64,000 bases of DNA from Candidatus Omnitrophota bacterium (GCA_003598025.1 QZKH01000003.1:503221-567220), one strand, 5' to 3'. Positions 16,144 through 36,100 are shown, counted from the stretch's first letter. The notes: generated by a model from the letters alone, not told the origin. Numbers and translations are program-made.

Positions 16144-16326
16144 ACTATTTCTCCTTGATAAAAATGTGACCGCCCCCTTTATTCGACACAGAAGGTGTCG
16201 CACTTGGCTTTCCAATAGGCCAATGTGCATTTTATGCCGTAGTAAGCAAGCCTTCAATCATCTAATAAGCCCCTACGGGGCGGGATGCCCCGACTCTTGC
16301 GGGCAGTGCTTCAAAACTAAACCTTT

Positions 16327-16395
16327 GGCGGGGCGCGGCCCCCACCCCGCGCCCCGCCTAGCGCTATCTTTTCAAAAAACTGGCGAAAATTTTAG
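16327..16395. repeat. Left copy of a 69-bp inverted repeat containing a 12-bp GC hairpin (IR-L)
   Basis: ggcggggcgcgg-cccccacc-ccgcgccccgcc hairpin plus the AT-rich arm tagcgctatcttttcaaaaaactggcgaaaattttag. Its reverse complement occurs at 23159-23227 with one indel. It abuts the stop codon of the OLD-like gene and probably also acts as its terminator. Confidence 0.8.
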
Positions 16396-18362
16396 GGATC
16401 GGCTAAACTTACAATTCTGCTTATAATATCAGTTAAGGTTTTGCTCCCTGCTTTTTGGCTTTTTGCGCACTCCATTAATTGATACAAAAAATACGGTTGT
16501 TTTTCGCCGATTTTTAGAGATTCTACTTCGGCTTTGCATATTTTATAAATTTCTTCGGACAACTCTTTTTTTAATTGTGCTGGCAAGTTTTCTTCAAAAC
16601 ATGCAAAAAGTTTTTCTACTCTAGTAGTAGGAAAATCTTCTTCTGTGACACCACCCAATTTTAAAAGAGCTCTATTATATTTGGTATTGCAATCTTTACT
16701 ACTGCTTTCGCATTTTTTATCTCCATCAAATAAAAAATATACTGGAATATCGAGTTCACGAAATATAAGGACACACCTATCAATATTCGTTTTGCCTCCA
16801 ATAGGTATTACGGTAATCCCTTTCCCTTCTAGGTCACCTGGATTTTTCAAGGTTCCAAATAAAACTGCTTTATCGGCTTCGCCTTCGACTATTACAACTG
16901 CATCTGCAAAAAAACCTTCATTAACATAAGGGGTCAAAAGTGAGATTAACCGCGCTTTTAATGATGCGGCGGTAAAACCTTCTTTCTGTTTTCCAAATAT
17001 TTCTTCCAACTCTTTGGTTATTTTATCTAAATTCATCTTTTTGACTTTTGTTTCTGGAATTGCCCCTCCTGCAATATTCTTTCTGGCCCTTCTTATTTTT
17101 TCTACCCTATCTAAACCAATAAAATGAGGAGAGTGTGTTGAATAAATAATCTGCATCTCATAATCTCGCTCAGGAGAAGGTTGCGCTAGCTCCAACAATA
17201 CTCTGGATATATGCCTTTGTCTAACTGGATGTTGATATAATTCTGGCTCTTCTATGGCGAGTATAAAATTAGGCCTTATTTCAACTATTTCTCCCTTTCG
17301 CTCTCCTTCTTCGTCTTTGGCTTCTTCTTCGGCTTGTTCTTTTTGCGAATCATCAACATGCCGAGCTATACTTAAATGTTGCAGCAACGTCATTATAAAG
17401 GCTCTTTGCAAACCATGCCCCTTTTTTGAAATATCTCCCTCAAAATTATCCTCAATCAATTTTACATATGCTTGCGGAAGCGGTATTTCTAAGTCTTCTT
17501 TTTCTTGCCAGTTTAATACTACGCCAGCTGATTGAACAAACTTTCTTAAAGTATCATTCAGTTCTTTCTGTAATTTTGGTAGTTCTGGTAATTTCTCAGG
17601 ATTAGTTAATTCTTTATACTTTTTTATGGTCTCTTCCTTAAATGCTAATAGCTCGGGTTTTCGCTCAATTTCTTTCTTAACGACTAACTGTAAGAGCTCA
17701 GTTATTATATTCCCTTTGGTCTCGGTTGCATCTAAATTTGCATCTCTTACAGCTGGTATAAAAATGAACCTAGTAAATCTTTCAAGCTTTCCAACACCTA
17801 CATTCCGAAAACCAAAAAATTGTCCATCATCTTTTATGCGCCTTAGCTTATCCAAATGCTCTTTTTCCCAAGCTGCCAAATTCGCCTCAATCCCATCTGC
17901 ACTTGATACCGTTGGCAAAGTATTGAATTCAGGCGTACTTCTTAACTCATTATATTTGGTCCTTTTGTCTGATTTCTGAATAGCTGTTCTTATTTCTTGA
18001 AAGTCAGGATACTGTAGTTTTGATCCGTAATATCTTTCTTGTGAAGTAACTCCATTAAACCCAATCTCTTTTTCGATCGTCAAAGTTCCTCTATCAATAT
18101 ATGGCGCAAACTCCTCAAGCTCATATTCTGTTAATTTATAAAACTTAATTATAATTCTTATTGGTTTGCTTGTGTCTTTATTGTAAAAATCTTCCTCATT
18201 AACTGTTAACGACTTCACCGTGTTATAAAATAGGTTGAGGGCTTGCAAAAATGTTGATTTTCCCGAGCCATTCGGACCTATCAGAATAGTTAAATCCTCA
18301 AAAGTAAGTGTTTCCTCCCTTATAGATCTGTAATTTAATACTGAGATTTCTTCAATAATCAT
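16392..18362 (-). CDS. OLD-family (overcoming lysogenization defect-like) ABC-type ATPase + Toprim nuclease-domain protein
   Basis: N-terminal Walker A GPNGSGKST; ABC signature-like GHGLQR; Walker B/D-loop ILAIEEPELYQHP; H-loop YSTHSP. C-terminal Toprim motifs: VIVEGEADK (ExxD) and YFLFDGDKK (DxD). 656 aa. Confidence 0.8.
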   Translation of the reverse strand: MIIEEISVLNYRSIREETLTFEDLTILIGPNGSGKSTFLQALNLFYNTVKSLTVNEEDFYNKDTSKPIRIIIKFYKLTEYELEEFAPYIDRGTLTIEKEIGFNGVTSQERYYGSKLQYPDFQEIRTAIQKSDKRTKYNELRSTPEFNTLPTVSSADGIEANLAAWEKEHLDKLRRIKDDGQFFGFRNVGVGKLERFTRFIFIPAVRDANLDATETKGNIITELLQLVVKKEIERKPELLAFKEETIKKYKELTNPEKLPELPKLQKELNDTLRKFVQSAGVVLNWQEKEDLEIPLPQAYVKLIEDNFEGDISKKGHGLQRAFIMTLLQHLSIARHVDDSQKEQAEEEAKDEEGERKGEIVEIRPNFILAIEEPELYQHPVRQRHISRVLLELAQPSPERDYEMQIIYSTHSPHFIGLDRVEKIRRARKNIAGGAIPETKVKKMNLDKITKELEEIFGKQKEGFTAASLKARLISLLTPYVNEGFFADAVVIVEGEADKAVLFGTLKNPGDLEGKGITVIPIGGKTNIDRCVLIFRELDIPVYFLFDGDKKCESSSKDCNTKYNRALLKLGGVTEEDFPTTRVEKLFACFEENLPAQLKKELSEEIYKICKAEVESLKIGEKQPYFLYQLMECAKSQKAGSKTLTDIISRIVSLADP

Positions 18363-18409: not shown

Positions 18410-19171
18410 TTAACAATAACCTTCTGTTTCTTTTATCGCTTTGCTATATAAACAATAATCACAGTCTTTGCTATGTCCAGGCACCTTAGGGTTCATCAGG
18501 CATTTATGCATTTCAACTATTACAGGATCAATCCAAGAGCTATTTCCTTCATAAGAAATAATTTTAATGTTAAACTCAAGCTTTGCATCAAAACTTTCCT
18601 TGTTGGTATTTCCATTACAATATACAAAGTAACCGGTAGAAGAAACATTAAAATCGTTTTTCCTGAATAACCACTGATATATTTCCATTTGTCTTTTATA
18701 AGATACCTGCCAATCTGCATCTAAGTTTACCTCTTCCTCTTTGGACGTGCTCTTATAATCTACGATAAAAAGTTGGCCTTCTGATCCGGCCCAGACATCA
18801 TCCACGGCTCCTGAAAGCAAAAGATTAGTTTGCGGATGTAAATATTCTATTCCGCCACGAAGAGCATCTCGCCAGAGATTTAACTTTTCATGTTGAAAAG
18901 GAACAGCCTTTATTCCATAGGTTTGCATAAGGGGGTGGGGCGTTTGTTTACTTCTATGCAAATCGAATTCTTTCTTAAGTAATTTATCCACCGCAGAATT
19001 CAAAGCAAAGGGAAATCCTGGAGGCTGCCCCACTCCTAGTCTTCTATCAAGATAAAAACAGCGTGGACAGTTAATAAATAGCTCGATTTTAGAACGGCTT
19101 ATCTTGAATGGTAATTTATTAAGCGGATCAAATAGATTCCGCGTTCTTCTTCCAGAATAGTATTTTGACAT
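18410..19171 (-). CDS. Cas4/RecB-like PD-(D/E)xK nuclease with 4-Cys (Fe-S) cluster
   Basis: Motifs GAVDDVWA and LFIVDYKST (motif II/III: D...hhDYK), QMEIY (RecB-family QxxxY), one N-terminal Cys (CPRC) and C-terminal CDYC: the Cas4/AddB-type Fe-S arrangement. 253 aa; 48-nt gap to the OLD-like gene. Confidence 0.75.
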   Translation of the reverse strand: MSKYYSGRRTRNLFDPLNKLPFKISRSKIELFINCPRCFYLDRRLGVGQPPGFPFALNSAVDKLLKKEFDLHRSKQTPHPLMQTYGIKAVPFQHEKLNLWRDALRGGIEYLHPQTNLLLSGAVDDVWAGSEGQLFIVDYKSTSKEEEVNLDADWQVSYKRQMEIYQWLFRKNDFNVSSTGYFVYCNGNTNKESFDAKLEFNIKIISYEGNSSWIDPVIVEMHKCLMNPKVPGHSKDCDYCLYSKAIKETEGYC

Positions 19172-19209: not shown

Positions 19210-19422
19210 CTAACAAATCCTATTTTGTCTATAAACCTTATAAATATTTCTGCTGGCATAACTGCCCTTTGAATTAGCGGAACACAGCGCATCGTAGATA
19301 TGTTGGGGTACGTTAAAATACTCATAAAGTGAACCGTCTTTAAACTCTATTTGCAAGATTGCACTATCAGAATCATATCCTATAGAAGCTAAAGTTGAGG
19401 AATTAACAGAAATCATATCCAC
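19210..19422 (-). CDS. KTSC-domain small protein
   Basis: 70 aa; STLASIGYD...ILQIEFKDGSLYEYFNVPQHIYDAL matches the KTSC (lysyl-tRNA synthetase C-terminal-like) fold pattern. 38-nt gap to the downstream nuclease gene. Confidence 0.55.
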   Translation of the reverse strand: MDMISVNSSTLASIGYDSDSAILQIEFKDGSLYEYFNVPQHIYDALCSANSKGSYASRNIYKVYRQNRIC

Positions 19423-19517: not shown

Positions 19518-20339
19518 TTATTCCTTTTGAAAATCATTTACTATTGTAAAAATTAAAGCCACGGTTGCAGAAGCAGTAGCCTTAGAAATAGTGTATTTTT
19601 TACTCTTTTCTGCAGCTAAATGTACCGAGTTTCTAAATCGTCTAATTGCTGAAGCCAAATTACTGATCTCTTCTTTTAAAAAACCTTTTTTTTGACATAT
19701 TTCAATTAGTTCTTCAAATCTTTTATTCTTCACATTTTCATTTTTATTATCTAGGAATAATCTTAGCAATTCCTCTATCACTCCACCAGCCAAAATTACA
19801 GCTGGTTTATTAAAATCATTTCTGGCTAAAAAATAGGCTTGTTCAACGTCTCTAAAAATAATTTCTCTTCTAAATTGGCTTTTAACAAAGTTAATATTTT
19901 TCCCAAATACACGCTTGCTTATTCCAAAGTCTTTTTTTATTCCATCCCAATAATTCTTATTTTCGGCTTGTTTCTTTTTTCTTGAAGATCGGGCATGCAG
20001 CCATGAAGAGCTCTCGGGTTGTGGGCCATCTTCACAATACCAACCTTCACTATAATCTAGATATTCTGAAGGACAATCAAGCCGATCAGTTATTGCTACT
20101 CGAAAGGAAATAGCATCTAAGTCTTTGTAACGCGCTGGGCTAAAATCAGAAACCCTACCTTCCCAACAGCCTTCTATCTTTCGAGTTTCACGATTTCTTT
20201 TTATAAATACCGTATTGGTATTGGCTACTAATTTCCCCTCATTCATAGGGTGACGGAACATTGATTTAGTAAAAAACGCTCTGTTATCTGGTAGCTGATC
20301 CCAATGACCCCGCCAATTTGTTACCATTATGTATTTCAT
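19518..20339 (-). CDS. Hypothetical protein with possible C-terminal HEPN-like domain
   Basis: 273 aa. The C-terminal helical region contains AIRRFRNSVHLAAE, compatible with the HEPN Rx4-6H motif. The N-terminal domain is unrecognised. First gene of the minus-strand operon. Confidence 0.35.
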   Translation of the reverse strand: MKYIMVTNWRGHWDQLPDNRAFFTKSMFRHPMNEGKLVANTNTVFIKRNRETRKIEGCWEGRVSDFSPARYKDLDAISFRVAITDRLDCPSEYLDYSEGWYCEDGPQPESSSWLHARSSRKKKQAENKNYWDGIKKDFGISKRVFGKNINFVKSQFRREIIFRDVEQAYFLARNDFNKPAVILAGGVIEELLRLFLDNKNENVKNKRFEELIEICQKKGFLKEEISNLASAIRRFRNSVHLAAEKSKKYTISKATASATVALIFTIVNDFQKE

Positions 20340-20559: not shown

Positions 20560-20593
20560 TTGACCTTTTTTACATTTCGTAGTACAATCGAAA
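20560..20593 (+). promoter_or_regulatory. Sigma70-like promoter (TTGACC-17-TACAAT) overlapped by an imperfect palindrome, upstream of the lexA-methyltransferase fusion
   Basis: TTGACC at 20560-20565, 17-nt spacer, TACAAT at 20583-20588. Palindrome TTTCGTAGTACAATCGAAA at 20575-20593 (TTCG...CGAA arms) overlaps the -10 and could be a LexA-type operator. ATG at 20618. Confidence 0.4.
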
Positions 20594-20617
20594 AAGAATC
20601 GAAAGTAGAGACTAGAT

Positions 20618-22150
20618 ATGCTTACAAAACGCAAAAAACAAATATTAGACTTCCTGAAAGACTATATAAATAAACATCGCTATTCGCCCTCCCTAGAAGA
20701 AATAAAAAAACATTTCCGATTATCTTCTGTAGCCACGATTCATTACCATATACGCCAATTACAAGAGATGGGGTATTTAGACAAAATGAATAACCATCCT
20801 AGAACAATAGATGTCTCAATGGAACAAAAGTTAATACGAATTCCGATTCTTGGTACTATTGCGGCCGGGCAACCCATTGAGGTAATTGAAAACAAAGAAA
20901 GCATCGCCATCCCCCAAAGCAAAATTAATTCTAACGATGAATATTTTGCATTACGAGTAATTGGAAATAGCATGATAGATGAAAATATAAATGAAGGGGA
21001 TATTATCTTAGTAAGAAGACAATCAGTAGCTGAAAATGGACAAAAGATAGTTGCGCTTATTGATAATTATAAAGCGACTCTAAAAAAATTCTATAAAGAA
21101 AGAGGACATATTAGACTTCAGCCTGCAAATAAATTCCTTGAGCCAATTATTATAGATAAGAAGAGCGAATTTGTTATACAAGGCGCAGTAGTTGATGTTA
21201 TAAAGAATACTGCCTCCGAACCCCTAACTATTACACCTCCAATTAAAGATAAGCCCAAAAAACATGATAAATTGCCCTTAAACAAAATTATTTGTGGGGA
21301 TGCCCTTGAAGAGATTAGAAAGATTCCGGATGAATCCTGTCATGTTATTATTGCTGATCCTCCTTATAATATTGGTAAAGATTTCGGCAATAACCTAGAT
21401 AAAAGAGATTTGGGAGAATATATTGCATGGTGTAAAACTTGGATTAATGAATGCGCCAGAATAATGAAACCCCGCGCTACAATGTTTATCTATGGATTCA
21501 GCGAAATCTTAGCTTATTTATCTGTTGAGATTCCCCTAAACCGGAGATGGCTAATTTGGCATTATACTAATAAAAACGTGGCCTCTCTCCAATTCTGGCA
21601 AAGGAGCCATGAAGCAATTATCTCTTGCTGGAAAGATGATCCTGTTTTCAATAGGGATGATGTACGAGAACCTTATACTGAAGGATTCTTAAATGGAGCG
21701 GCTGGCAAAGTTAGGGCAGGAACCGCAGGACGATTTAGCCGAAATGGAAAAGAAACTATTTATAAAGCGCATGAAGCGGGAGCGTTGCCTAGAGATGTTA
21801 TTAAAATCCCTGCATTAGCCGGAGGCGCTGGCATGACCGAACGATGGTTTTTATGCAAAACCTGTGATAACGTTTTTAAGCCAGATGCCCTTAAGAAACA
21901 TATTAACCATGATATAATAAAACACCCAACACAAAAACCTTTGGAGCTCTCGGGAAAGCTAATTAAGTCATCGATACCTAAGAATGGCGGCATAGTATTG
22001 GCTCCTTTTGCCGGGGTAGGCTCGGAATGCGTAGCAGCTAAACAACTTGGACTAGCTTACATCGGAATTGAGCTTAATCCTGAGTATATTAGGATTGCAA
22101 ATAAAAGGTTGGATAGTATTGAAGTGCAGGATACCCTCAAATTATTCTAA
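20618..22150 (+). CDS. Full-length LexA repressor (wHTH + S24 peptidase) fused to a beta-class N6-adenine/N4-cytosine DNA methyltransferase
   Basis: Residues 1-200 align to LexA throughout: the HTH region, the AAGQP Ala-Gly cleavage site (E. coli VAAGEP), Ser in RVIGNSM and Lys in YKATLKKF. Residues 210-510 carry the N6_N4_Mtase signatures DPPY (motif IV), then HPTQKP and LAPFAGVGSE (motif I) in the beta-class order. Confidence 0.8.
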   Translation: MLTKRKKQILDFLKDYINKHRYSPSLEEIKKHFRLSSVATIHYHIRQLQEMGYLDKMNNHPRTIDVSMEQKLIRIPILGTIAAGQPIEVIENKESIAIPQSKINSNDEYFALRVIGNSMIDENINEGDIILVRRQSVAENGQKIVALIDNYKATLKKFYKERGHIRLQPANKFLEPIIIDKKSEFVIQGAVVDVIKNTASEPLTITPPIKDKPKKHDKLPLNKIICGDALEEIRKIPDESCHVIIADPPYNIGKDFGNNLDKRDLGEYIAWCKTWINECARIMKPRATMFIYGFSEILAYLSVEIPLNRRWLIWHYTNKNVASLQFWQRSHEAIISCWKDDPVFNRDDVREPYTEGFLNGAAGKVRAGTAGRFSRNGKETIYKAHEAGALPRDVIKIPALAGGAGMTERWFLCKTCDNVFKPDALKKHINHDIIKHPTQKPLELSGKLIKSSIPKNGGIVLAPFAGVGSECVAAKQLGLAYIGIELNPEYIRIANKRLDSIEVQDTLKLF

Positions 22151-22848
22151 TCGTAAAGCGCCTTCTCTTCTTCAAAAATTGTTGGCGTAAAAACTGTAAA
22201 ACCATTTTTTAGAATCTTGATCTTCCCTGTATCTAACCAATCAGCCTTAAACTCACTATAAGCCTTTTTAAACCCACCCTTCTTTTTATTAGGATCTAGA
22301 AGCATGTCAAAATTTGGAACTTTGTAGACGATTTTAATAAATTTTCCATAAAGTTGCTTTTTGGGCTTCTTTTCCGCCCTTACCTCTCTGCTAAAAGTCT
22401 CTTTTTTAACCTGGTAATTCAACTTTTTCCCTTTATAAGTAACTCTAAAGTCAGCTCCTTGATGATCTAATTCTGAAGACATCTCTACAGATTTTTCTCC
22501 AAAAACCGCTTCGGCTACGTAACCAGCATGAATTTGAGTAATAATACTCGCCCAAGTACGGTAAATCCTCGCAGGCAGACCTTTATAAAAACAGGTTTTG
22601 CACATTTGGGTCTTATTACGAAACAATTCTAGATTCTTACGGTATAGTTTCCTATATTCTTCATAGAACTGCTCGTAAGAGATAACCTTTCTTTTATCCC
22701 AATATATCTTATAAAGCAAATCTAATGCCTGGATTTCTCTAGGTAAATCCATTTCAACTATTTTAATGGGCATGAATTTCTTACGATAGTTGCCCAAATC
22801 AACAATCTCTAAAAACTTTTCAAATTGCTCGTTGTCCATTTTAGCCAT
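22147..22848 (-). CDS. Putative Type II restriction endonuclease (partner of the methyltransferase)
   Basis: No family signature. Inferred from position (directly downstream of a C-protein gene, convergent with and overlapping the MTase 3' end by 4 nt) and a possible PD-(D/E)xK-like ELDHQGADF...YQVKK segment. Confidence 0.4.
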   Translation of the reverse strand: MAKMDNEQFEKFLEIVDLGNYRKKFMPIKIVEMDLPREIQALDLLYKIYWDKRKVISYEQFYEEYRKLYRKNLELFRNKTQMCKTCFYKGLPARIYRTWASIITQIHAGYVAEAVFGEKSVEMSSELDHQGADFRVTYKGKKLNYQVKKETFSREVRAEKKPKKQLYGKFIKIVYKVPNFDMLLDPNKKKGGFKKAYSEFKADWLDTGKIKILKNGFTVFTPTIFEEEKALYD

Positions 22849-22857
22849 ATTTTCTCA

Positions 22858-23067
22858 CTATAATAATTCTTTTACAGAAACATTAAGCGCTTTTGCAAGC
22901 TTAGCGATATTCTTAAGCGCAACGTTTCTTTTCCCGCATTCAATCTGTCCAATATATGTCCGGTGTAAATCGGCTAATTCCGCAAGTTTCTCTTGGGAGA
23001 GATTCTTCTTGAGGCGATATTTACGCACCTTAGCACCAAATTGTTCTAGAATTAATGCCATATTCAT
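22858..23067 (-). CDS. R-M controller (C) protein, XRE-family HTH
   Basis: 69 aa; LSQEKLAELADLHRTYIGQIECGKRNVALKNIAKLAKALNV is a canonical XRE/Cro-C1 HTH of C-protein size. Located immediately upstream of the putative REase gene on the same strand. Confidence 0.65.
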   Translation of the reverse strand: MNMALILEQFGAKVRKYRLKKNLSQEKLAELADLHRTYIGQIECGKRNVALKNIAKLAKALNVSVKELL

Positions 23068-23158
23068 CTTTCCTTTATTGACAATATTATATAATTATGT
23101 TATATTTAAGTCTACAGAATCCGAGTAACATTATTATAAACAAAAAATGTTCCCTCCC

Positions 23159-23227
23159 CTAAAATTTTCGCCAGTTTTTTGAAAAGATAGCGCCAGGCGG
23201 GGCGCGGGGTGGGGGCCGCGCCCCGCC
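23159..23227. repeat. Right copy of the 69-bp inverted repeat (IR-R)
   Basis: Reverse complement of 16327-16395 with a single indel (cagg vs ctagg). Weaker similarity extends about 60 bp further outward on both copies. Confidence 0.8.
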
Positions 23228-23716
23228 CAAGCATTTTCTGAAGCACTGAACGCAAGAGGCGGGGCAAAGCGCCGTCCGTATAGTTTTAGCTTGTATCAGG
23301 CGCTGCGGCCGAGCTTCTTCCTAAAAAAATTTTGTTTTTAAGGGCTAAATTGAGCTAAAGCGAGGACGCACGCCGCGACCCTGGATTTTTTTATTGTTGT
23401 AGCGACGAGCCACGCCGAACACGCACTGCATTACCACGAAGCGAGCGGCCCAGCGAGCGCCATTGCCCGCTCAATGTGGGAGCGCCCCCCCAGGGCGCGG
23501 TGCATTTAAGCTGTTTCCTTAGAGGCCGGCTTTACCCCGGTATTAGAAAACAAAAACGGCAAGAGGCGGGGCAGAGTTTAGATATAGCAGCTGAGGTTCT
23601 TTCCGGGAAAATTTTGTTTGCAGGGCGCGGGGATAAGGAGATGTTTCAGGGCTTTACCCCGGGATGCACCTTGCCCAAAAGGATGGGCAAGTGCCCGGCT
23701 TTCTGCCGGGAGTTTC
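23160..23716. repeat. GC-rich repetitive non-coding spacer
   Basis: About 560 bp of more than 60 % GC in an AT-rich genome. Contains recurring motifs gggcgcgg, ctttaccccgg and caagaggcggggca, each present 2-3 times, and a perfect hairpin ggacccca-tttctaaa-tggggtcc at about 23752-23777 just inside the recombinase 3' end. The ORFs here (e.g. 23476..23781) look spurious. Confidence 0.5.
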
Positions 23717-25594
23717 TCAGGGACGAAAATGCTTTCGATCTATCGGATACAAGGACCCCATTTCTAAATGGGGTCCCATAAGTTCCCCTGTGCGAACACC
23801 TAGATTGCTATAATACTTTTTACCTGAACCGGCTAACGGAACCCCGTCGCACGAGGAAGTTTCTCTTTTCTTATAAGCTTTTGTTCCAAACTTGCCACTA
23901 ATCTCTTCTAAAGCTTTATTATTATAACACTCATCGGCTATTTTTTGTAACGTTTTATTCCATATTTCAGCATTTTGACCTCTACTAAAAGGACGACCGA
24001 ATAACCCGATCTTGAGCTTGCCAATCCCTTTTTTCTTGTCAGCGATTTCGCAGATAACCGAATTAATTATTCTTGGTAAAATTGCCTGAATACGCTCCCT
24101 ATTATTTTTATTCATCATATAAAAATCTTCAAATAACTGTAATGTCATAATGTAGTCATGAGCTGTCCCGGCCTGTACCTTTTCTGCTTGAATTTCTGAT
24201 TTCAGTCTGTTTTCTTCTAAAACTAGCTCAGACTCATCTTGATTTAAAGTCCCTAGTTTCTCCTTAACCATATCGATTCCTGCCAGCCCTTTATCTGTGA
24301 GTATATCCACTAAATTTGCAATTTTTGTACGAATATCTTTTAGGCTTGCCTGAACTCTATCCAAATCTTCTTCCAAAATTCCTATTGTTGATGCAGTTGC
24401 CTGGTTTGCTTTTTTTACGATTTCGGCGATATTCTCCGGATCTAAATGTAAATTCCGCAGCACCTCGATGATTGCATCGTCTACAGCATCTGCAGCCAAA
24501 AGATTAACTTCTCCACAATCAATACCATTAGTCTTAAATGCTTTCATGCACATATAATAGGGATAATATTTACCGCCTTTACCGGTAGCCGGCCTTGTAA
24601 TCATGGTCGACCCGCAATTACTACATTTAAGCAGGCTTTTGGTAAGGTAAACGTAATTACGATTTGAGCCATTGGGACCGTGATTGGTTGTTCTGTTTCT
24701 TTTTAAGACCGCTTGGATTGTTTTATGAACATCCTCACTCCTTATGGGTTCCCAGTTCCCGGTATAAATCTGACCATTGTGCTCCTGCTTTGCAATATAG
24801 CGAATATTCTGAAGAATACGCGATACTTGAGGTTTTGAATATGTTTTCCCATGTTTAGATTTATAACCTTTTTGGTGCAAAATATCAACAACCTTACCTG
24901 CACTTTTCACTCTCAGGTATAATTGATCAATAAATTCAACATGCTTTCTATAAACAGGATCGGGCACATAGGTAGTCTTACCATTAATATCTTTATTTGT
25001 TCGATAACCTAATGGTGGCGGACCTATTGGCCGGCCCTGATTAAGATGTCTTATAACAGTTTCTAAACTATATTGCGATATCCGTTCTGCTTGCCATTGG
25101 GCAAGATTAGCGTGATTACGCATAATCATCTGCCCGTCAGGCGTTGATGTATCTATATCAAGATCTAGACAGACAAGCGCAACCTCATTCTCGTTAAATT
25201 CAGCTGAAATATCTATATAGTCTCTTGTGTTTCTTGCTATACGATCCAGTTTTGTTACTACAACAACATCAATAAGCCTTAATTTAGCAAGTTCAAGGGC
25301 TTTAGCTAATCCTCTTCTGCCTTCACGCTTTGTTGCAGTGCGCCCTTTTCTCTGTCCGTCCGGGCCTTCGTTTTCTACGAATATATCGATAAGCTCCCAT
25401 TTTTGAGGCGCATGCAGACTTGATTTAGACTTCACCCAATTCTTAAGGACTTCTTTCTGATGATCTAATGATTCGCCTATCTTCTGCGCCTGCTTGTCTG
25501 TTGAAACGCGGGCAATGCCAAAAACACGGACAACCTTTGCATCCTTAAAGCTATAAACAGTTGTAACTCTTCTCCAAGATATCTTTTCAGCCAT
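23717..25594 (-). CDS. Large serine recombinase (resolvase/invertase N-terminal domain + recombinase domain + zinc ribbon + coiled coil)
   Basis: Catalytic-Ser region GIARVSTDKQ near the N-terminus, recombinase domain, zinc ribbon CSNCGS...YYPYYMC, long C-terminal coiled coil; 625 aa. Confidence 0.85.
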   Translation of the reverse strand: MAEKISWRRVTTVYSFKDAKVVRVFGIARVSTDKQAQKIGESLDHQKEVLKNWVKSKSSLHAPQKWELIDIFVENEGPDGQRKGRTATKREGRRGLAKALELAKLRLIDVVVVTKLDRIARNTRDYIDISAEFNENEVALVCLDLDIDTSTPDGQMIMRNHANLAQWQAERISQYSLETVIRHLNQGRPIGPPPLGYRTNKDINGKTTYVPDPVYRKHVEFIDQLYLRVKSAGKVVDILHQKGYKSKHGKTYSKPQVSRILQNIRYIAKQEHNGQIYTGNWEPIRSEDVHKTIQAVLKRNRTTNHGPNGSNRNYVYLTKSLLKCSNCGSTMITRPATGKGGKYYPYYMCMKAFKTNGIDCGEVNLLAADAVDDAIIEVLRNLHLDPENIAEIVKKANQATASTIGILEEDLDRVQASLKDIRTKIANLVDILTDKGLAGIDMVKEKLGTLNQDESELVLEENRLKSEIQAEKVQAGTAHDYIMTLQLFEDFYMMNKNNRERIQAILPRIINSVICEIADKKKGIGKLKIGLFGRPFSRGQNAEIWNKTLQKIADECYNNKALEEISGKFGTKAYKKRETSSCDGVPLAGSGKKYYSNLGVRTGELMGPHLEMGSLYPIDRKHFRP

Positions 25595-25943: not shown

Positions 25944-26006
25944 GGGGTTAGTTGACCCCCAAAAATAGGGGCTAATTCACCCCTTATGTGGGGGTAATTT
26001 GGCCCC
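25944..26006. repeat. Three iteron-like GGGG-N8/9-CCCC hairpin units
   Basis: ggggttagttgacccc (25944-25959), ggggctaattcacccc (25968-25983) and gggggtaatttggcccc (25990-26006), spaced about 22-24 bp apart and overlapping the 3' end of the replication-organizer-like gene. Confidence 0.45.
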
Positions 26007-26393
26007 TTCGATATTACGAGTTTTCCACAGCTGCCAGGTTGTGTGATTCGGATTTAAAGCAAGTCTGTTTTTACGGCCATCCTTGCTTTTGATAATGACC
26101 TTGGACTGAATAAGCAGATTGATCGTTCTTCTGACATTGCGCTTGTTGAGATTTGTCTCTTTTGCGATATAGCCGTAACTAAGAAGCTTGTTTTCTTTAT
26201 GCCAGCCGCTGGTCATCCGGATTACAAAAATAATAACCCGGATCTCTGTGCCATTGAAAGGCGACCTGTAAATAGCGCGCAAAACATTATTAGAGATCTT
26301 TGTGTAGCCCCCAATATTCTGAAATAAAGTTTCTGTCATAGTAAAAGGCAACAAAAAAGGGGCTGGCATTCCTGAGAGTTTCCTCAGAAACAC
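25977..26393 (-). CDS. Winged-helix DNA-binding protein resembling the phage replisome-organizer / replication-initiator N-terminal domain
   Basis: The pattern ISNNVLRAIYRSPFNGTEIRVIIFVIRMTSGW...LSYGYIAKETNLNKRNVRRTINLLIQSKVI is typical of Phage_rep_org_N-type wHTH domains. The true start is probably the internal MTETLFQN. Confidence 0.45.
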   Translation of the reverse strand: MFLRKLSGMPAPFLLPFTMTETLFQNIGGYTKISNNVLRAIYRSPFNGTEIRVIIFVIRMTSGWHKENKLLSYGYIAKETNLNKRNVRRTINLLIQSKVIIKSKDGRKNRLALNPNHTTWQLWKTRNIEGAKLPPHKG

Positions 26394-26725: not shown

Positions 26726-26882
26726 TTATTTAGCCAAATCCTTCATAACCTCTTCTTCTGCTTTATATTAACCAATGTGCGGTTTTGCTACATAACGTTG
26801 TAATTCCGCACATTTTATGGTATACTTTAAGTAGAAATAAGTCAGAAAAAGGTTTAAGTCGATAATAGCAAACCATTCGAAA

Positions 26883-27012
26883 GAATGGGGCGCAAAGCTA
26901 TAGAGCCTAACTTCCGGGGGATACCCGGGATAAGGCAGTCAGTTGCCGAAGTTAAACTTTTTTTCTTTTGTGCCCCATTCTTCTGAAAAGAGAAGCAGAA
27001 TGGGGCGTTTTT
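26883..27012 (+). promoter_or_regulatory. Leader with terminator/anti-terminator alternative pairing upstream of a response-regulator gene
   Basis: gccccattcttc (26972-26983) pairs with gaagcagaatggggc (26991-27006), followed by TTTTT (27008-27012): an intrinsic terminator about 25 nt before the RBS. An upstream copy of gaatggggcg (26883-26892) could pair with the same gccccattc arm instead. A palindrome atgtgcgg-N23-ccgcacat and a TATACT -10-like hexamer lie at 26780-26830. Confidence 0.4.
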
Positions 27013-27037
27013 GTCTTTAGTATCAGAAGGAGCTCTA

Positions 27038-27613
27038 ATGAAACCTAAGTATGGAGTACTCATAGTCGATGATGATACGGCGCTTGCCCAGGATGCCAAG
27101 GAAAACCTTGAGCATGCAACAGAGGTTGATCTTGAGGTGGATATCTGTCCTGACAGCACCCAGGTAATCCCCTGCCTGAGCAAGAAAAGCAAACACTATG
27201 ACGTAGTGCTCTTAGATATCAAAATGCCTAAATTAACCGGCGCAGAAGTTCTCCAGCTCATCAAAAAGAAATTCCCCGATATCCATGTTATTATCATTTC
27301 AGCTTACATGGATGAATACAACCAAGATGAATTCATCCGCCTGGGCGCTTATCATGTGTTTCAAAAACCATGCGACTTTCACAAAGTAAAAGAATTTATT
27401 AAACGCGCAATCGATGACATTGAAATAACCACTGTAAGAGTAAAGGGCCTTGACCTAAGAAGAGCTCTGTACCAGGTCTCTAAAGAAATTATCTTTAAAG
27501 CATTAAGGCGCAATGACTGGCACGTGGAGAAAACCTCAAAGGATCTTAATATCACGCGCTGGTGCCTGGACCGCTGGATGAAGAAACTCTATATCAAAAA
27601 ACCGGCTCTTTAA
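27038..27613 (+). CDS. Response regulator: receiver domain + Fis-type HTH, no AAA+ domain
   Basis: Start at the ATG with an AGAAGGAG RBS; the track ORF begins at a TTG at 27011. Receiver motifs (LIVDDD, LLDIKMPKLTG); C-terminal NtrC/Fis-like HTH (ALRRNDWHVEKTSKDLNITRWCLDRWMKK). Confidence 0.75.
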   Translation: MKPKYGVLIVDDDTALAQDAKENLEHATEVDLEVDICPDSTQVIPCLSKKSKHYDVVLLDIKMPKLTGAEVLQLIKKKFPDIHVIIISAYMDEYNQDEFIRLGAYHVFQKPCDFHKVKEFIKRAIDDIEITTVRVKGLDLRRALYQVSKEIIFKALRRNDWHVEKTSKDLNITRWCLDRWMKKLYIKKPAL

Positions 27614-30183: not shown

Positions 30184-33100
30184 TTACACCATGCCTTCTA
30201 ATTCTTTATTGGCTTTATCTAACTTGTCAAGGTACTGCGTATCAACCTTTGATTTTTCGATAGGCTTAAAGATAAGCTGCTTAATCTTGCCTTCATCATC
30301 CAGCTGGACTTTACCGGTTTCATCGGTCTTGGCAACAATATATTCCTTTAATTCCTTAGGCAGCTGCTCGTAGAATTTCGGCTCTTTGGCAAGACCGGCA
30401 ACAATCAGGCCTAAGCTAGAGAGGGTTTTGGTTTCTTCTCCGCGCTTGACTAAGACATCAACCTTTTTGCCCCAATACCTGATATTATCTTCAAAGATAA
30501 TCCTGATTGAGCCAGCTATTAGATACGGCTCAAGGCTCTTAATAATATAGTCCTGGGGGATATCCGGTATGGTAACTAAGCTCTTAAGCAAATCATCAGT
30601 TAAGCCTAAAATTTTGACAATCTTATCCCTATTCAAAGCTGGATCGATATTGATAAGTCTGACGCGTATGTTCTCTGGAATCTGTTTCTTTTCCTGCGCC
30701 TGATACAATGAAGCAAGCGCTTCTCTAAAGCCAAGTCCTTTTAGCTGAGGCGTGCCTTTTGAGGTATCGATAAGAGTATCGACATCAATTTCTAGCGTCA
30801 TTCCGTCATAACCAATACAAAGCATATTAATAGCCTGAATTGCGCTGTTGCTTAAGACTAAATCATTATTCTCATTAACACTAAACAAGGCTCCAGCGAA
30901 AGGATCAGCCGTCTTTATTTTTAGCTTCTCTGTATTTTCCCTGTTAAATTTATCCTCAAGGACTTTTATGGCATCGCTGACTGCCTGGTTATCCGGTTCT
31001 TTCTCAAAGAGCAGCCTTAAAAACGGCAAGGCTTCAACAGCGCCAAATTTTGCTAAAGCAATGGCTGCATTATTTCTTATTTCCCGACTCGGGCTATATA
31101 AGGAATTGATAAGCTTAGAATCTACTTCTCTTAATAACATGACCAAGTCAGCATCGTTTAGCCTGATTTGCTGTTCTTGCTCAATAGACCTTGCTTTCTT
31201 GCTTGCCCAATCAACCCTGGGAAGATTACCCAGGTTAATAGTAGTGTTGATAGTACGGAATTCTTGCTCAATGCCCGGAGGCAAAGTCACGGAAGTCTTA
31301 AATAATAATCCCATAAACAGCCGTTCCAGCTCCTGATCTGCCGGATGAGAAAGCTTATAGAACGCTGAACCGACCTCATGAACGATAATCCTGAATAAGG
31401 CTACCAAAATCTGCTTATCTCTGTTTTTTATGCCCTGGTTTATCTCTTCAACAGTAACCGGCCTTCCCAATAAATCCTCAAGACAGGACCGCTGAATATA
31501 AAAGGTATTACCGCTAAGAGTCGCACCAAAGGTTGAACGTCCGTTGTCAATAATGTATATATTTAAAGTCCTGAGGTAATCTATCAGTTCGTTAGCGTGG
31601 TTGGGAAATATGCGCGAGAAAAATACTGTGAGTGCAACAAGAAAATCAGGATCCAGCGGCATACCCTTAATTTTTCCCAATTCATAAGATTCTTTTATTT
31701 CTCGTGCCATAGGAGGCGGAAAATCTCCAAACTTAGCCGGAAGATTAGTCGTATCTCTGAACATGTTGTCAAAGAATAATTTTCTTAAGCCCTCTATAAC
31801 ACTGTCTCTTGTATCAGGAAAATCAAGGCTAAAATTATTATTAGGCGCCTGGGGCTTCTTTTCTTGAGGCTTAGGCTGAGGAATAGGTTGAGGCGACGGG
31901 GTAACCGGCTTGGGTCTTTCCAGTTCTGGCTCATAGACCGGCGGTTCTTCTATTATAGGCCTTACTTGTTTTAGTTTTGGCTTATTAAAATCTAAAATCT
32001 CTTCTATTCTTTCATCAAAACGGCTTCCCTTGCCTTTTTCGCTTTTTCCAACAATTTTGATTTCATATTCTTCAGCTAAGCGGGAAACATCCTTAGCCAA
32101 CTGCTCTGTCCACGGGATCCCTTTTCTTGCAGCGAGTTTCTTCGCTCCTAGAAGAATTGCCTCGTGGGCAAGCAGGACTGCGACTTCAAAAGTATAGAGC
32201 TGCTCGTAGGTAAGCTGGTCTATGTAGATTGAATTATTAGAAAGTCCGTTGTGAGCTATCTGATAGGCATTTTCATTGTTTACCAATAAGCCGGGAGGAG
32301 AATTATTGTGCGGTACTATCAAGACAATATTTGCTATCGAAAGTATCTCCGGAATATCAACTCTGCCTAATCTTGGAATTTGCACAGAAGGATATCTTTT
32401 TAACGACGAGATTACCCAGGCAATATCCTGTGCGTATTTTGCGCAGTTATCTTTCCAGCCGGATGCATCGCCCCAGATAAGGCTGCCCCTTCCTTCTCTT
32501 TGCGCTGCTGTAATAACCTCATTGACATCCATGTGTTCATCCGGGCTGAACATACCTTTTCCTTTAGCTGCGCCTGCAAAGTCAGACTTAATTCTATTGG
32601 CAAGCAGGTGTAAAGTTCGTTGCCAGCCATGCTCTCCGCCCTGATCGTAAAACTCTACTTCTTCAGGGATATTATGTTTTGCGCCAACGGAATAAACTTT
32701 TGCCCCGGGGATAATCATCCTGCGGTCTAATCCTGAAGGCCCGAAGTCGTCTCCCACAATAAGGATCTGTCGTGGTTGTATGTCCTGCGGAAGATAATTC
32801 CTGAACATTCCTACTGCCGCAGCTTTATCCACTCCTTTAGAAACTATATGTATAGTCCCTCCTCCAGAGACCAGTATATCTAACTGCCAGCTGCCGGGGA
32901 TTCTGCGTTTAATTCTTTCTATTAATTCTTTTTTCTGATCCGCTGAAGTGCTTTCTTTGATGCCCAGAGTCAATGAAATATCCCTGTTATGAATAAAGGT
33001 AACACCCGGATCCTGGGTTAGAATGGGGCCTAAGACTGGAATATTGCCTTTTGGATTAACCACTTCTTTTATTGCGCTTCTTATGATTTCCTGCAATTCT

Positions 33101-36100
33101 TTTCTGTGCGCCTCTGTATCAAAAGGCGCTCTTCCCATGGTAGCGTCATCCAAAAGCACTGCCTTGAACTGCCCCTGTGTATAGAACTGCCATAGCTGGC
33201 TGCCTTCTGAAGGGCCGATATACAGGCTGCTCAACAGCTCTTCTGAATCTCCTGAGTTCTTAAGCAGGCTGCGCAGCGGTTCTATTAGATATGTTTTTGT
33301 CTCTTCCGTGCTTTGCGCGGTGATAATTGCAATCTTTATTTTTGCCTTTAAGAAACCTCTAAGCTGCTCAAGGATCTCCGGCGGTACAGTGCGCAGGGTG
33401 CGTGAAAGTGTCTTATCCAAATCGAATATCATTGCCTTCGGCAAGCCGGATGTGTTTGGAGCCTTTGGAATAATATCGTCTATCCCGCAGGAATATTTAA
33501 GCATTAAACCAATCCACAAATCTACGTGGTCAATAAGATTTTTTACCTTAACCTTCTCATGGGAATGATTACCCTCGTATGGAGAACGAATATGTAAACC
33601 AGCATTTGCATGATTTGGAAAATGGACAAAGTCACCCATACCTAAACCTTCTCTTGTCAGCTCTATTTTTCTACCTTTACTAACGGCAATTTCCCGAACC
33701 GTATTTATTATGTCACTGTAGGGCTTCTTCTGGCTGTCCTGACCAGACACTACAACAACGAACGAATTATCCGGATCAGGGATTGCATAATCTAACGGAC
33801 CATCGGAAGTCAGCGAGAATAACACATTCTTAAACAACTCAGGATGACTTTCACCCAAGTGTCTCGCTCCTTCAAAAGGCGTTTCTTCTTCAGCAGTAAT
33901 AATGAAAACAATTCTTCTGCGGTCTGCGCCTTTATCCCAATAGTTTGTCTTTATGAATCTTAATGCTTCAAACAACACCGTAAGTCCCGCTTTATCATCT
34001 GCTCCGAAAGAACGATCTTGCTTATGATAAAAACCCTTTATCTGATCAGAAATATTCATATCTTCTGGAGTTGAAGAGGGGATTGTATCCATATGAGCAT
34101 TGATGATAAATCCCGGCTCTTTAGAGAACCTTCCTGTCCCGGGAAATTCTACAACCAGGTTCTTTGGTGTATCCGAGCTGCCGCACTGCGGGCCGCATTC
34201 AAGAACAACTCTTGCACCCATGGCTGTAAGGGCATCTTTTAACTGCTGCCTGATTGCCTCTTCGCTTCCTGTGGGACTTCTCTGACGGATCAGGCTGACA
34301 AAAGTATCTACGCTTTGGCTTCTGGCTTTTTCATGCAAATAGAGTGAACTTACTTCTTTAGAAATTGCCCTTGCCTTGGCTAACAAGGTGTCTGCCACCG
34401 GCTTTATTTCTTCGGCCTTTTTCAGCACTTCTATTTCTTTCTTTAGCTGCGCCTCTTCTTCTTTAAGCTCGGTTATGGTTTCCTGCAAAAGCCCTCTTTG
34501 CACATCTAAACCGCGAAGTACAAGCAAGAGCCTCTCGCGTTCTTCATTAAGCTTGGCTGCAGCAGCATTAATACCGTCTAATTCCTGACGTGCTTTATCC
34601 CTTTCAGCAACAAGACTGTCCAACTCAGCTTTTACCCCTGCTTTTTCCTGTTCAAGCCTTGAGAGCTCGGCTGCATGCTCTTGTTTCTTTCTAGCGAATT
34701 CTTCATCCAGGGCGTTGATCTGGGCTTGGATATCTTGTCTTTGAGCATCAAGCTGTTCCTGCAGCCTCTTCTGTTCTTCGCTTAGAACCTGCTGCTTTTG
34801 CTGCGCCTGAGCTTGAGTGGCTTCTTGTGTTTCTTGAACATGGCGCCTTGCTTCCTCAAGTTCTTGTTGTGTTCTATCAACATTTTCTTTTAACGCTGCC
34901 CTTTGAGCCTCTAAGCCGCGGATTTCTTCCTGAAGATTTTGTTTTTCTTTTCCAAGGCTTAATAATTCCTGCTTTTTGCTTTCTACATCCTGCTGAACTC
35001 CCTTTAAGCCTGTGGTTTCGGCCTTAAGCTTTTCTCTTTCTTCTCTTAAGCTGGTCAGCTCCTGAGTAAGATTTGTTATTTCTTCTTTTATAACTCTTGC
35101 TTTTTCCTCTGCCTCGCTTATAGATAACGACAGTTCTTTTTGTTTAGCCTTAATCTCATTTTGCAGCGCAGTTGTCTGTTGGGAGAGTTCATCTTTCTGT
35201 CGGATTAAACTTTCTATCTGCTGATCTAGCTGTGTTGTTTTAATTTGAGCTGCGCGCTCGGTTTCCTGTCTGGCCAAAGCGTCTTTTTCTGTTTCAAGGC
35301 TAGTAATAGCTTGCGTTAATTCCTGCATTTTTTGATTCAAGGCTGCTATTTCTTTCTGAAGACCATCTTTCCTAGTCTGAAAACTTGCAGCATCTTCTTC
35401 AAGCTGTTTTTTCTGTGCATTAAGAGCAGTTGTTTCTTCTTTTACTTTTCTTAAGTTTTCTTCTGCTTCCTGCAATTGCTTATTTAATGCCTCTATCTGA
35501 GCCTTAGCAGCTGAAGTATCCTGCAGAGCTGTTAACTCCTGGCGTGCTTTTTCTTTCTGCTGCTCCAAGACCTTCAGTTCTTCCTGATAAGCATCAATTT
35601 TTTGCTTTAAGCCCTGGATCGCCTGTTCATAATTAGTTCTTTCTTCTTTGAATCTGGCTGTTGCCTCTTCCTCCTGAGCTGCTGCCAAAGACAAACTCTG
35701 CCTCTTTGCTTCCAAATCTTTCTCAAGCTGGATAATTTCCTGTGTTAGTTTTTCTTTCTGCTGAGTTAATTCTTGAATCTGCTGTCCAGCTTGCGCGGAC
35801 TTCTGGCTTCTTTCTTCTTCAAGCGCAGCAATTGTCTTTTCAAGACCTGCTATTTCTTCTTTAAGACTGGATACCTTTGTCTGTAATTGCGGAATAACTG
35901 CTGCATCCTGCGGCTCAACTGCTACTACATCGTCCGGTTTTTCTCCTGCACCCTCAAGTGCCTCAATAGGAAATGGAGTCTTTGGCAAAGGATAGTCTTG
36001 TTTGTTATATTCAATTTGTCCTTGCAGGACCTCGGGTTTCACTGCGTAAAGCTCAAATCCTTCAGGAGTAGTTTTTGTGCTAAGAAGATTAATGACTTTT

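Follow-up and report, generated by a model that had tools for sequence, protein, structure and literature searches.

A full-length LexA repressor fused to a DNA methyltransferase in a TaqI-family restriction-modification cassette: a candidate self-regulating, damage-responsive switch

Introduction

Can a type II restriction-modification (R-M) cassette carry its own sensor of DNA damage? The question is raised by a gene in a 64,000-nucleotide (nt) stretch of DNA from a Candidatus Omnitrophota bacterium (GCA_003598025.1, QZKH01000003.1:503221-567220), the whole of which we call the window. An initial annotation, made from the sequence alone, described the gene product as a DNA methyltransferase (M) fused to a complete, cleavage-competent LexA repressor, and placed it in a module with a separate controller (C) protein, a convergent putative endonuclease (R), and a palindrome overlapping the promoter. 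It is only partly understood how type II R-M systems spare their host while they become established and while DNA is repaired or recombined, and damage-induced restriction alleviation is, to our knowledge, known only for type I systems. If the proposal is true, a methyltransferase equipped with an SOS-type sensor of its own would be a direct answer to the type II self-restriction problem. Here we describe the fusion, the family to which it belongs, its predicted operator, and the explanations that compete for it. Loci used for comparison carry L numbers.

Results

A full-length LexA joined to a beta-class methyltransferase

The fusion is encoded by one uninterrupted open reading frame (ORF; coordinates of this and all other features are in Table 1). 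A Pfam scan placed LexA_DNA_bind (PF01726) at amino acids (aa) 2-63 with 56.5 bits, Peptidase_S24 at aa 76-192 with 97.2 bits, and N6_N4_Mtase at aa 242-496 with 121.4 bits. The NCBIfam LexA equivalog TIGR00498 scored 180.8 bits, above its cutoff of 110.95, and positions 4-202 of the 203 in the model were covered. In a phmmer search of the PDB sequences, the best solved match to the fusion was the LexA of Thermotoga (3k2z, E=7e-36). Alignment with E. coli LexA (chains 7b5g and 1jhh) paired IAAG^QP of the fusion with the cleavage site VAAG^EP (Ala84-Gly85 in E. coli), GNSM with Ser119, and TLKKF with Lys156. In the methyltransferase, DPPY lies ahead of FAGVG with the target-recognition region in between, an order typical of the beta class. 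The closest solved relatives are M.MboIIA, M.RsrI, and CcrM.

These profile and pairwise alignments confirmed that the protein consists of a full-length LexA, a flexible linker, and a beta-class methyltransferase. The initial annotation had held that the N-terminal part is LexA along its whole length and not merely a helix-turn-helix, that the Ala-Gly scissile bond and the Ser/Lys dyad are intact, and that a canonical beta-class methyltransferase follows; all of this stood. Between residues 119 and 283 there is no methionine; therefore, the methyltransferase can only be made as part of the fusion. The AlphaFold2 (AF2) model has a moderate mean predicted local distance difference test score (pLDDT, 66.8) and contains a winged helix-turn-helix (wHTH), an S24, and a methyltransferase domain, all folded. 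The cleavage loop (aa 83-92) was modelled with low confidence, as was the linker at aa 199-212, where the pLDDT is about 30.

The fusion is a large family with conserved cleavage chemistry

In a search of 5.8 billion proteins, each of the best 120 matches shared the three-domain architecture, with a length of about 507 aa and 65-94% identity. These homologues come from Omnitrophota and from many lineages of the Patescibacteria, or candidate phyla radiation (CPR), and NCBI names the orthologues "transcriptional repressor LexA". A scan of species-representative genomes for the same fusion returned 44 loci, nearly all of them from CPR. The LexA-methyltransferase fusion is thus a large family, mostly from Patescibacteria/CPR with some members in Omnitrophota, and not a one-off. 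That two genes had been joined by a frameshift in sequencing or assembly, the event named as refuting the fusion, is next to inconceivable. We found no point in favor of such an artefact: the same single ORF is present in hundreds of independent assemblies (NCBI, JGI, ENA, and Logan), the length of the linker is conserved, and the ratio of nonsynonymous to synonymous substitution rates (dN/dS) is below 0.3 in every segment.

At least 99% of the 120 close homologues retain the Ala-Gly bond, the serine, and the lysine unchanged, and so do 44 of 44 divergent fusion clusters that span four methyltransferase families. Mean column conservation over the 120 homologues is 0.84 for the S24 domain versus 0.87 for the methyltransferase. 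In comparisons between three Omnitrophota relatives, the wHTH gave dN/dS values of 0.06-0.09, S24 of 0.10-0.14, and the methyltransferase of 0.04-0.07; the values for the R and C genes are 0.07 and 0.04, respectively. From the invariant catalytic residues and the purifying selection, we infer that self-cleavage may couple the fusion to RecA and the SOS response.

A direct repeat over the fusion's own promoter

The fusion gene has a sigma-70-like promoter, and the form TTGAC-N17-TAnAAT is kept in L005 and L006, the two closest relatives. The predicted operator, two units of AATCGAAA, overlaps the end of the -10 element and the likely transcription start, and each unit contains TCGA. Its reverse complement, TTTCGATT, is the unit of those relatives whose recognition helix carries the same tyrosine (Y class, see below). 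The paired operator occurs as a perfect copy only once in the 64 kb. Copies with at most two mismatches numbered 10 in the window with 9.95 expected, which is the chance level and gives no sign of a wider regulon there; likewise, 331 kb of related loci contained no further operator copies beyond chance.

A direct repeat with a period of 11 base pairs (bp) was the best repeat in 26 of 41 fusion promoters, compared to 1.5% of shuffles. Most of the other fusion promoters contain TTCTA-N6-TTCTA, which falls slightly below the length cutoff. Fusion promoters account for 27 occurrences of this motif; two more were counted elsewhere in the 331 kb, where 1.8 are expected by chance. The operator was seen neither at the C/R promoter of the window nor upstream of R in relatives; therefore, R would not be under the direct control of the fusion.

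The palindrome proposed earlier, TTTCG-N9-CGAAA at 20575-20593, was retained in part. Its right arm belongs to the conserved direct repeat, whereas the left arm, the partial unit TTTCGTA, is not conserved in L005 and L006 and is probably not functional; consequently, the palindrome was rejected as the operator. We also rejected the idea that the TCGA within the operator serves to sense methylation. TTTCGA operators of the Y class are found on D12 and Eco57I-type cassettes with an AccI-family endonuclease as well; the TCGA is therefore probably incidental, and methylation sensing in the window cassette is a possibility.

The operator core follows one residue of the recognition helix

Glu45 of LexA touches bases in the LexA-DNA structure. 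We scored the helix residue at the position that aligns with this glutamate in E. coli LexA, which is Tyr43 in the window. Helix alpha-3 is the recognition helix of LexA (PMC4807011). Across about 50 loci, the core of the repeat tracks the scored residue: phenylalanine (F) goes with TTCTA, glutamine (Q) with TTCGG, glutamate (E) with TCGGG, or (C/T)TCGG, and tyrosine (Y) with TTCGA, the last in the window, L005, and L006. Seven loci were retrieved after this rule had been stated, and all seven fit it (Table 2). The suggestion that the fusion regulates its own transcription is borne out to the extent that the operator at its own promoter co-varies with the recognition helix; on these computational grounds, which are uncorrected for kinship, autorepression by the fusion is well supported.

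Table 2. Loci retrieved after the helix-operator rule had been stated
Locus	Helix residue	Repeat units	Partner
L053/L054	Q	ATGTTCGGTA x2	unfused, DpnI-family endonuclease
L055	Y	TTTCGA x2	D12 fusion
L056	Y	TTTCGA x2	gamma-class fusion
L057	E	CTTTCGGGT x2	N6_N4 fusion
L138	F	TTTCTATT x2	no partner gene on 901-nt contig
L139/L140	H	TTTCGAT + TTTCTAT	separate N6_N4 methyltransferase
L141	E	TTTCGGC + TTACGGT	no partner gene on 1.3-kb contig

The LexA part recurs with other restriction-modification partners

The LexA part alone was used as query against 1.84 billion cluster representatives. Its nearest relatives, with 41-62% identity, are mostly proteins of 348-890 aa that carry the module at the N-terminus; ordinary stand-alone LexAs of about 200 aa start at about 45% identity or less. 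Pfam assigned the partners of 44 long representatives to N6_N4_Mtase (30), Eco57I/N6_Mtase (7), D12 (5), and C5 DNA_methylase (2). The layout of L056 is that of the window, LexA-M followed by a convergent R and a C gene, but with an unrelated methyltransferase of the Eco57I type (gamma class) and an unrelated endonuclease of the AccI family. Unfused members of the clade adjoin R-M genes as well: in the operon of P0122 (62% identical), the next gene downstream encodes a DpnI-family endonuclease, and P0190 is followed after 12 nt by a separate N6_N4 methyltransferase and then by a convergent gene. These sequence relationships point to the LexA module as a portable regulator of R-M cassettes.

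Locus L043 (4001-5443) encodes a LexA module that is 59% identical to that of the window, joined to a methyltransferase that is only 34% identical, with no TaqI-like endonuclease. At the level of sequence comparison, this is direct evidence of module shuffling.

Viral stand-alone methyltransferases that are 46-60% identical to the methyltransferase domain of the window are common, and some are on contigs labelled as giant-virus metagenome-assembled genomes (GVMAG). The best 80 relatives in IMG/VR (L058-L137) carry the methyltransferase only, and neither LexA nor R nor C was found with them; carriage of the cassette by phages was rejected on this basis.

Endonuclease, C protein, and target site

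PADLOC classifies the methyltransferase as MTase_II, adjoining a REase_II. The convergent gene that the initial annotation had called a putative endonuclease indeed encodes a TaqI-family enzyme, and the C protein that it had listed is a separate HTH_3 protein recognized by PADLOC (Table 1). The endonuclease and methyltransferase genes overlap at their 3' ends by 4 nt, and we found no terminator between them in the window. A TaqI-like endonuclease converges on the fusion in 35 of the 41 loci with downstream sequence. A search with the endonuclease returned no sequence match in the PDB.

The true start of the C gene is likely the second ATG at 23061, which gives a protein of 67 aa as in L005. 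PADLOC also reports a capH match to this protein. C proteins of the window type are found in the window, L005, and L024. We had considered that a C protein might be nearly unique to the lineage of the window; this was rejected, given that 10 loci, including L006, carry a different 72-aa C gene of the XRE type, which was missed by tblastn with the C protein of the window. Many CPR cassettes have no C gene and abut tRNA genes. In L004, L008, L015, L017, L020, L039, L040, L041, and L047, tRNA genes of various identities lie directly past the endonuclease, a position consistent with insertion at tRNA-proximal hotspots.

In the CPR loci, TCGA is the most avoided 4-bp palindrome, with an observed/expected ratio of 0.48 (rank 1 of 16). 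The RE_TaqI match together with this avoidance leads us to propose TCGA as the specificity of the cassette.

DnaA boxes and genomic setting

In 31 of 42 fusion loci (L004 and L007-L047), a perfect 9-mer DnaA box (TGTGGATAA / TTATCCACA) directly precedes the -35 element, at a distance of 49-86 nt from the ATG; with one mismatch allowed, the count is 39 of 42. The degenerate box of the window (Table 1) occupies the position of the perfect box in CPR relatives. Three other perfect copies are present in the 331 kb. DnaA boxes also flank the promoter of an unfused lexA-DpnI operon (L053, 1040-1048 and 1106-1114). These positions suggest a DnaA input on the cassette promoter.

The cassette lies in a 6.9-kb defence island that is bracketed by two 75-nt inverted repeat arms, which have a GC-rich, self-palindromic, terminator-like core and no other copy in the window. 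The repeat could be an insulating pair of terminators, the ends of a mobile element, or the sites of a segment that can be inverted, close to the serine recombinase gene. The same island contains a gene for an OLD-family ATPase/TOPRIM nuclease (16392-18362, minus strand; PADLOC Old, 9e-62), and genes for a Cas4-like PD-(D/E)XK nuclease (18410-19171, minus), a KTSC-domain protein (19210-19422, minus), and a protein of 273 aa that matches DUF4145 weakly (19518-20339, minus). Beside the island are genes for a large serine recombinase (Resolvase + Recombinase + Zn_ribbon_recom; 23717-25594, minus) and a phage replication protein O-like protein (25977-26393, minus), which suggest an integrated mobile element. 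A GC-rich (0.55) non-coding stretch (23232-23716) with internal direct repeats D1, D2, and D7 and no Rfam match separates the C promoter from the recombinase gene. Farther along the window we observed a cyclic di-GMP-I riboswitch (26857-26950, plus; 71 bits, E=1.2e-12) upstream of a response-regulator gene (27011-27613, plus), and a giant ORF of 6541 aa (30184-49809, minus).

Table 1. Coordinates of the fusion, its cassette, and flanking elements (window numbering)
Feature	Position	Strand	Remarks
LexA-methyltransferase fusion gene	20618..22150	+	single uninterrupted ORF, 510 aa
LexA winged-HTH DNA-binding domain, aa 1-65	20618..20812	+	Pfam, alignment, AF2 pLDDT 77-86
Recognition helix, ~aa 36-48	20723-20761	+	specificity residue Tyr43 at 20744-20746
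S24 peptidase domain (C-terminal domain of LexA; dimerisation, autoproteolysis), aa 76-192	20843..21193	+	
Scissile Ala83-Gly84 codons	20864..20869	+	LexA alignment; invariant in family
Ser118 codon	20969-20971	+	S24 dyad
Lys156 codon	21083-21085	+	S24 dyad
Lys/Pro-rich inter-domain linker, aa 198-241	21209..21340	+	low conservation
Beta-class N6_N4 DNA methyltransferase domain, aa 242-496	21341..22105	+	
Motif IV DPPY, aa 247-250	21356-21367	+	
Motif I FAGVG, aa 464-468	22007-22021	+	
Sigma-70-like promoter	20560..20588	+	-35 TTGACC 20560-20565, 17-nt spacer, -10 TACAAT 20583-20588; 10/12 matches
Predicted operator, AATCGAAA x2	20586-20593 + 20597-20604	+	direct repeat, period 11 bp
TTTCGTA partial forward unit	20575..20581	+	left arm of earlier palindrome; unconserved in L005, L006
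Degenerate DnaA-box-like GGTAGATAA	20542..20550	+	2 mismatches to TGTGGATAA; weak in window
DnaA box in CPR cassette promoter, TGTGGATAAC			
TaqI-family type II restriction endonuclease, 233 aa	22147..22848	-	Pfam RE_TaqI 4.5e-32; PADLOC REase_II
C (controller) protein, HTH_3	22858..23067	-	69 aa; PADLOC Control_protein 3.9e-25
C/R operon promoter TAGACT-17-TATAAT	23114-23086 (element 23086..23130)	-	
C-box-like ACTCGGATTCTGTAGAC	23126-23110	-	overlaps -35; ACT...TGTAGAC conserved in L005, L024
Inverted repeat, left arm, 75 nt	16323..16397		brackets 6.9-kb defence island
Inverted repeat, right arm, 75 nt	23157..23231		97% complementary; GC-rich hairpin + T-run, terminator-like

Discussion

The reading that we favor, and consider on balance probable, is that the fusion acts both as a LexA-type autorepressor and as the methyltransferase of a TCGA-type (TaqI-family) type II cassette, and that it serves as a damage switch. 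A dimer held together by the S24 domains would bind the two AATCGAAA units, one helical turn apart, over the -10 element and start of its own promoter; as the computational results support, the methyltransferase would in this way limit its own level. RecA filaments on single-stranded DNA (ssDNA) would trigger cleavage at Ala83-Gly84 and detach the DNA-binding domain; such filaments could form when under-methylated DNA undergoes self-restriction, during repair synthesis, or when the cassette enters as ssDNA. The M promoter would then be derepressed and methyltransferase output would rise. Because M and R converge without a terminator, read-through from M could also dampen the expression of R, which would otherwise be under the separate control of a conventional C protein and its C-box. 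In sum, a mobile type II R-M system would carry its own switch for restriction alleviation and safe establishment, one that does not depend on the host.

Several points weigh against this interpretation. We infer DNA binding, cleavage, and RecA dependence alike from sequence, and the covariation of helix and operator ignores phylogeny and comprises four main classes only. The operator of the window has the opposite orientation and follows the -10 element, whereas in most relatives it lies between -35 and -10. TCGA is not avoided in the window (observed/expected 0.90), which may reflect a recent acquisition here or an imperfect assignment of the specificity. In 2 of about 44 loci (L039, 3557-4696, and L040, 4001-5194) the S24 domain was deleted independently, at different junctions, leaving the wHTH alone fused to the methyltransferase in an SsoII-like architecture; the protease is thus dispensable in some lineages. 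Finally, the physiological direction has two alternatives: more methyltransferase may protect the cell, or its loss may kill.

The two S24-less loci bear on the idea that the LexA part serves DNA binding and dimerisation only, as in SsoII, with cleavage unused and no coupling to SOS. They keep the wHTH-methyltransferase beside a TaqI-like endonuclease, and some characterised LexA-like proteins are unresponsive to DNA damage, reportedly including Synechocystis LexA (PMC4759255). However, the invariant Ala-Gly and Ser/Lys residues would be needless for dimerisation alone, the S24 domain nearly equals the methyltransferase in conservation and is under purifying selection, and its loss is rare; we regard this idea as unlikely. 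It is very improbable, in turn, that the fusion is the housekeeping SOS repressor of its small-genome hosts, in charge of recA and repair genes and with the methyltransferase as an add-on. The score above the equivalog cutoff, the database name of the orthologues, and the absence of a second LexA from the 64-kb window would fit such a role. Against it, the operator is confined to the fusion's own promoter in the window and in the 331 kb of relatives, and operator and helix specificities vary from cassette to cassette. The gene also travels with an endonuclease, often by tRNA genes and here in a defence island by a serine recombinase, and the unfused members of the clade are linked to R-M genes too, while ordinary LexAs are at most about 45% identical.

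The second direction named above, in which cleavage upon damage costs the methyltransferase its stability or activity and damaged or infected cells die of restriction, would make the cassette an abortive-infection or addiction switch. The cleaved fragment would end in ...IAA, like the latent ClpX signal of E. coli LexA, and the defence island also encodes the OLD-family nuclease. Yet cleavage spares the S24 and methyltransferase body and removes only the DNA-binding domain, for which derepression is predicted; existing methylation lasts until replication, which would make for a slow killer; and no operator is present at the R/C promoter. We hold this to be improbable.

More tentatively, and with somewhat less than even confidence, we suggest that the clade represents an unrecognised and widespread class of R-M controllers. 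This class would comprise the fusions and the unfused lexA-M and lexA-R operons, each with a RecA-sensing, self-cleaving repressor, a private operator that can be reprogrammed through one helix residue, a methylation boost triggered by damage, and, in CPR, a DnaA input that ties methylase synthesis to the initiation of replication. If true, such a design would explain how a mobile cassette could read DNA damage in hosts whose LexA operators differ. One helix position set against the operator core in dozens of loci is a natural experiment in transcription-factor specificity, and the helix code bears on the repeated switching of LexA between palindromes and direct repeats as binding sites. In CPR and Omnitrophota, hundreds of entries named "transcriptional repressor LexA" are R-M methyltransferases, which matters for reconstructions of SOS regulons.

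The fusion had been flagged as unfamiliar. It is undescribed in the literature that we found by full-text search, a set outside which a 2017 study of the Patescibacteria SOS response (Sanchez-Osuna et al.) falls, but it is not rare. LexA is absent from a 2025 R-M review, whose section on methyltransferases that double as repressors covers SsoII, Ecl18kI, and EcoRII. The design thus seems to be common in uncultured bacteria yet undescribed, with its proteins already in the databases as LexA.

The SsoII-type systems (SsoII, Ecl18kI, and EcoRII) resemble the fusion in having an N-terminal DNA-binding region, a flexible linker, and the methyltransferase, with an operator in the R-M promoter region through which M is autoregulated. 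The likeness is functional only, as the LexA domains are not homologous to the N-terminal region of SsoII. In the SsoII type, a short helix-turn-helix of about 70 aa is attached to C5 methyltransferases; here, a complete 200-aa LexA with an S24 autoprotease is attached to partners that include N6_N4, D12, gamma-class, and C5 enzymes, and the operator is, unlike theirs, an 11-bp direct repeat. The operator of the SsoII type also governs R, whereas the fusion in the window has no operator at the R promoter.

With the SOS LexAs (TIGR00498; 1jhh, 3jso, and 3k2z) the fusion shares domain architecture, the Ala-Gly bond, the Ser/Lys dyad, and autoregulation. It differs in its C-terminal methyltransferase, an operator at its own promoter only, a specificity that varies between cassettes, residence in mobile R-M cassettes, and membership of a distinct clade. 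The LexA motif of Alphaproteobacteria is GTTC-N7-GTTC. Direct-repeat LexA operators have been reported, with Balneolaeota and Patescibacteria among the cases cited (PMC7739468); as in the fusion, two half-sites are about one helical turn apart and there is no palindrome. Those LexAs control chromosomal SOS regulons, whereas the sites of the fusions are in the promoters of R-M cassettes.

Like R-M systems of the C.PvuII and C.AhdI type, the window has a C gene ahead of R, and its C-box-like element overlaps the -35; in the fusion family, however, C is optional and the LexA-M fusion is the constant component. Type I restriction is alleviated after DNA damage through degradation of HsdR by ClpXP (PMC4231737, PMC12707154). 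The outcome that we propose is similar in that restriction would be lowered relative to modification upon damage or entry into a naive host. In type I systems a host protease acts on the restriction subunit, whereas here a repressor fused to a type II methyltransferase would cleave itself. In CBASS, the cyclic-oligonucleotide-based anti-phage signalling system, the repressor of the CapH/CapP pair is proteolysed after DNA damage and the defence operon is upregulated. The role proposed for the fusion likewise has a repressor removed by proteolysis after damage; CapH and CapP, however, are a separate repressor and protease without fusion to an effector, whereas here both functions would reside in cis on the methyltransferase.

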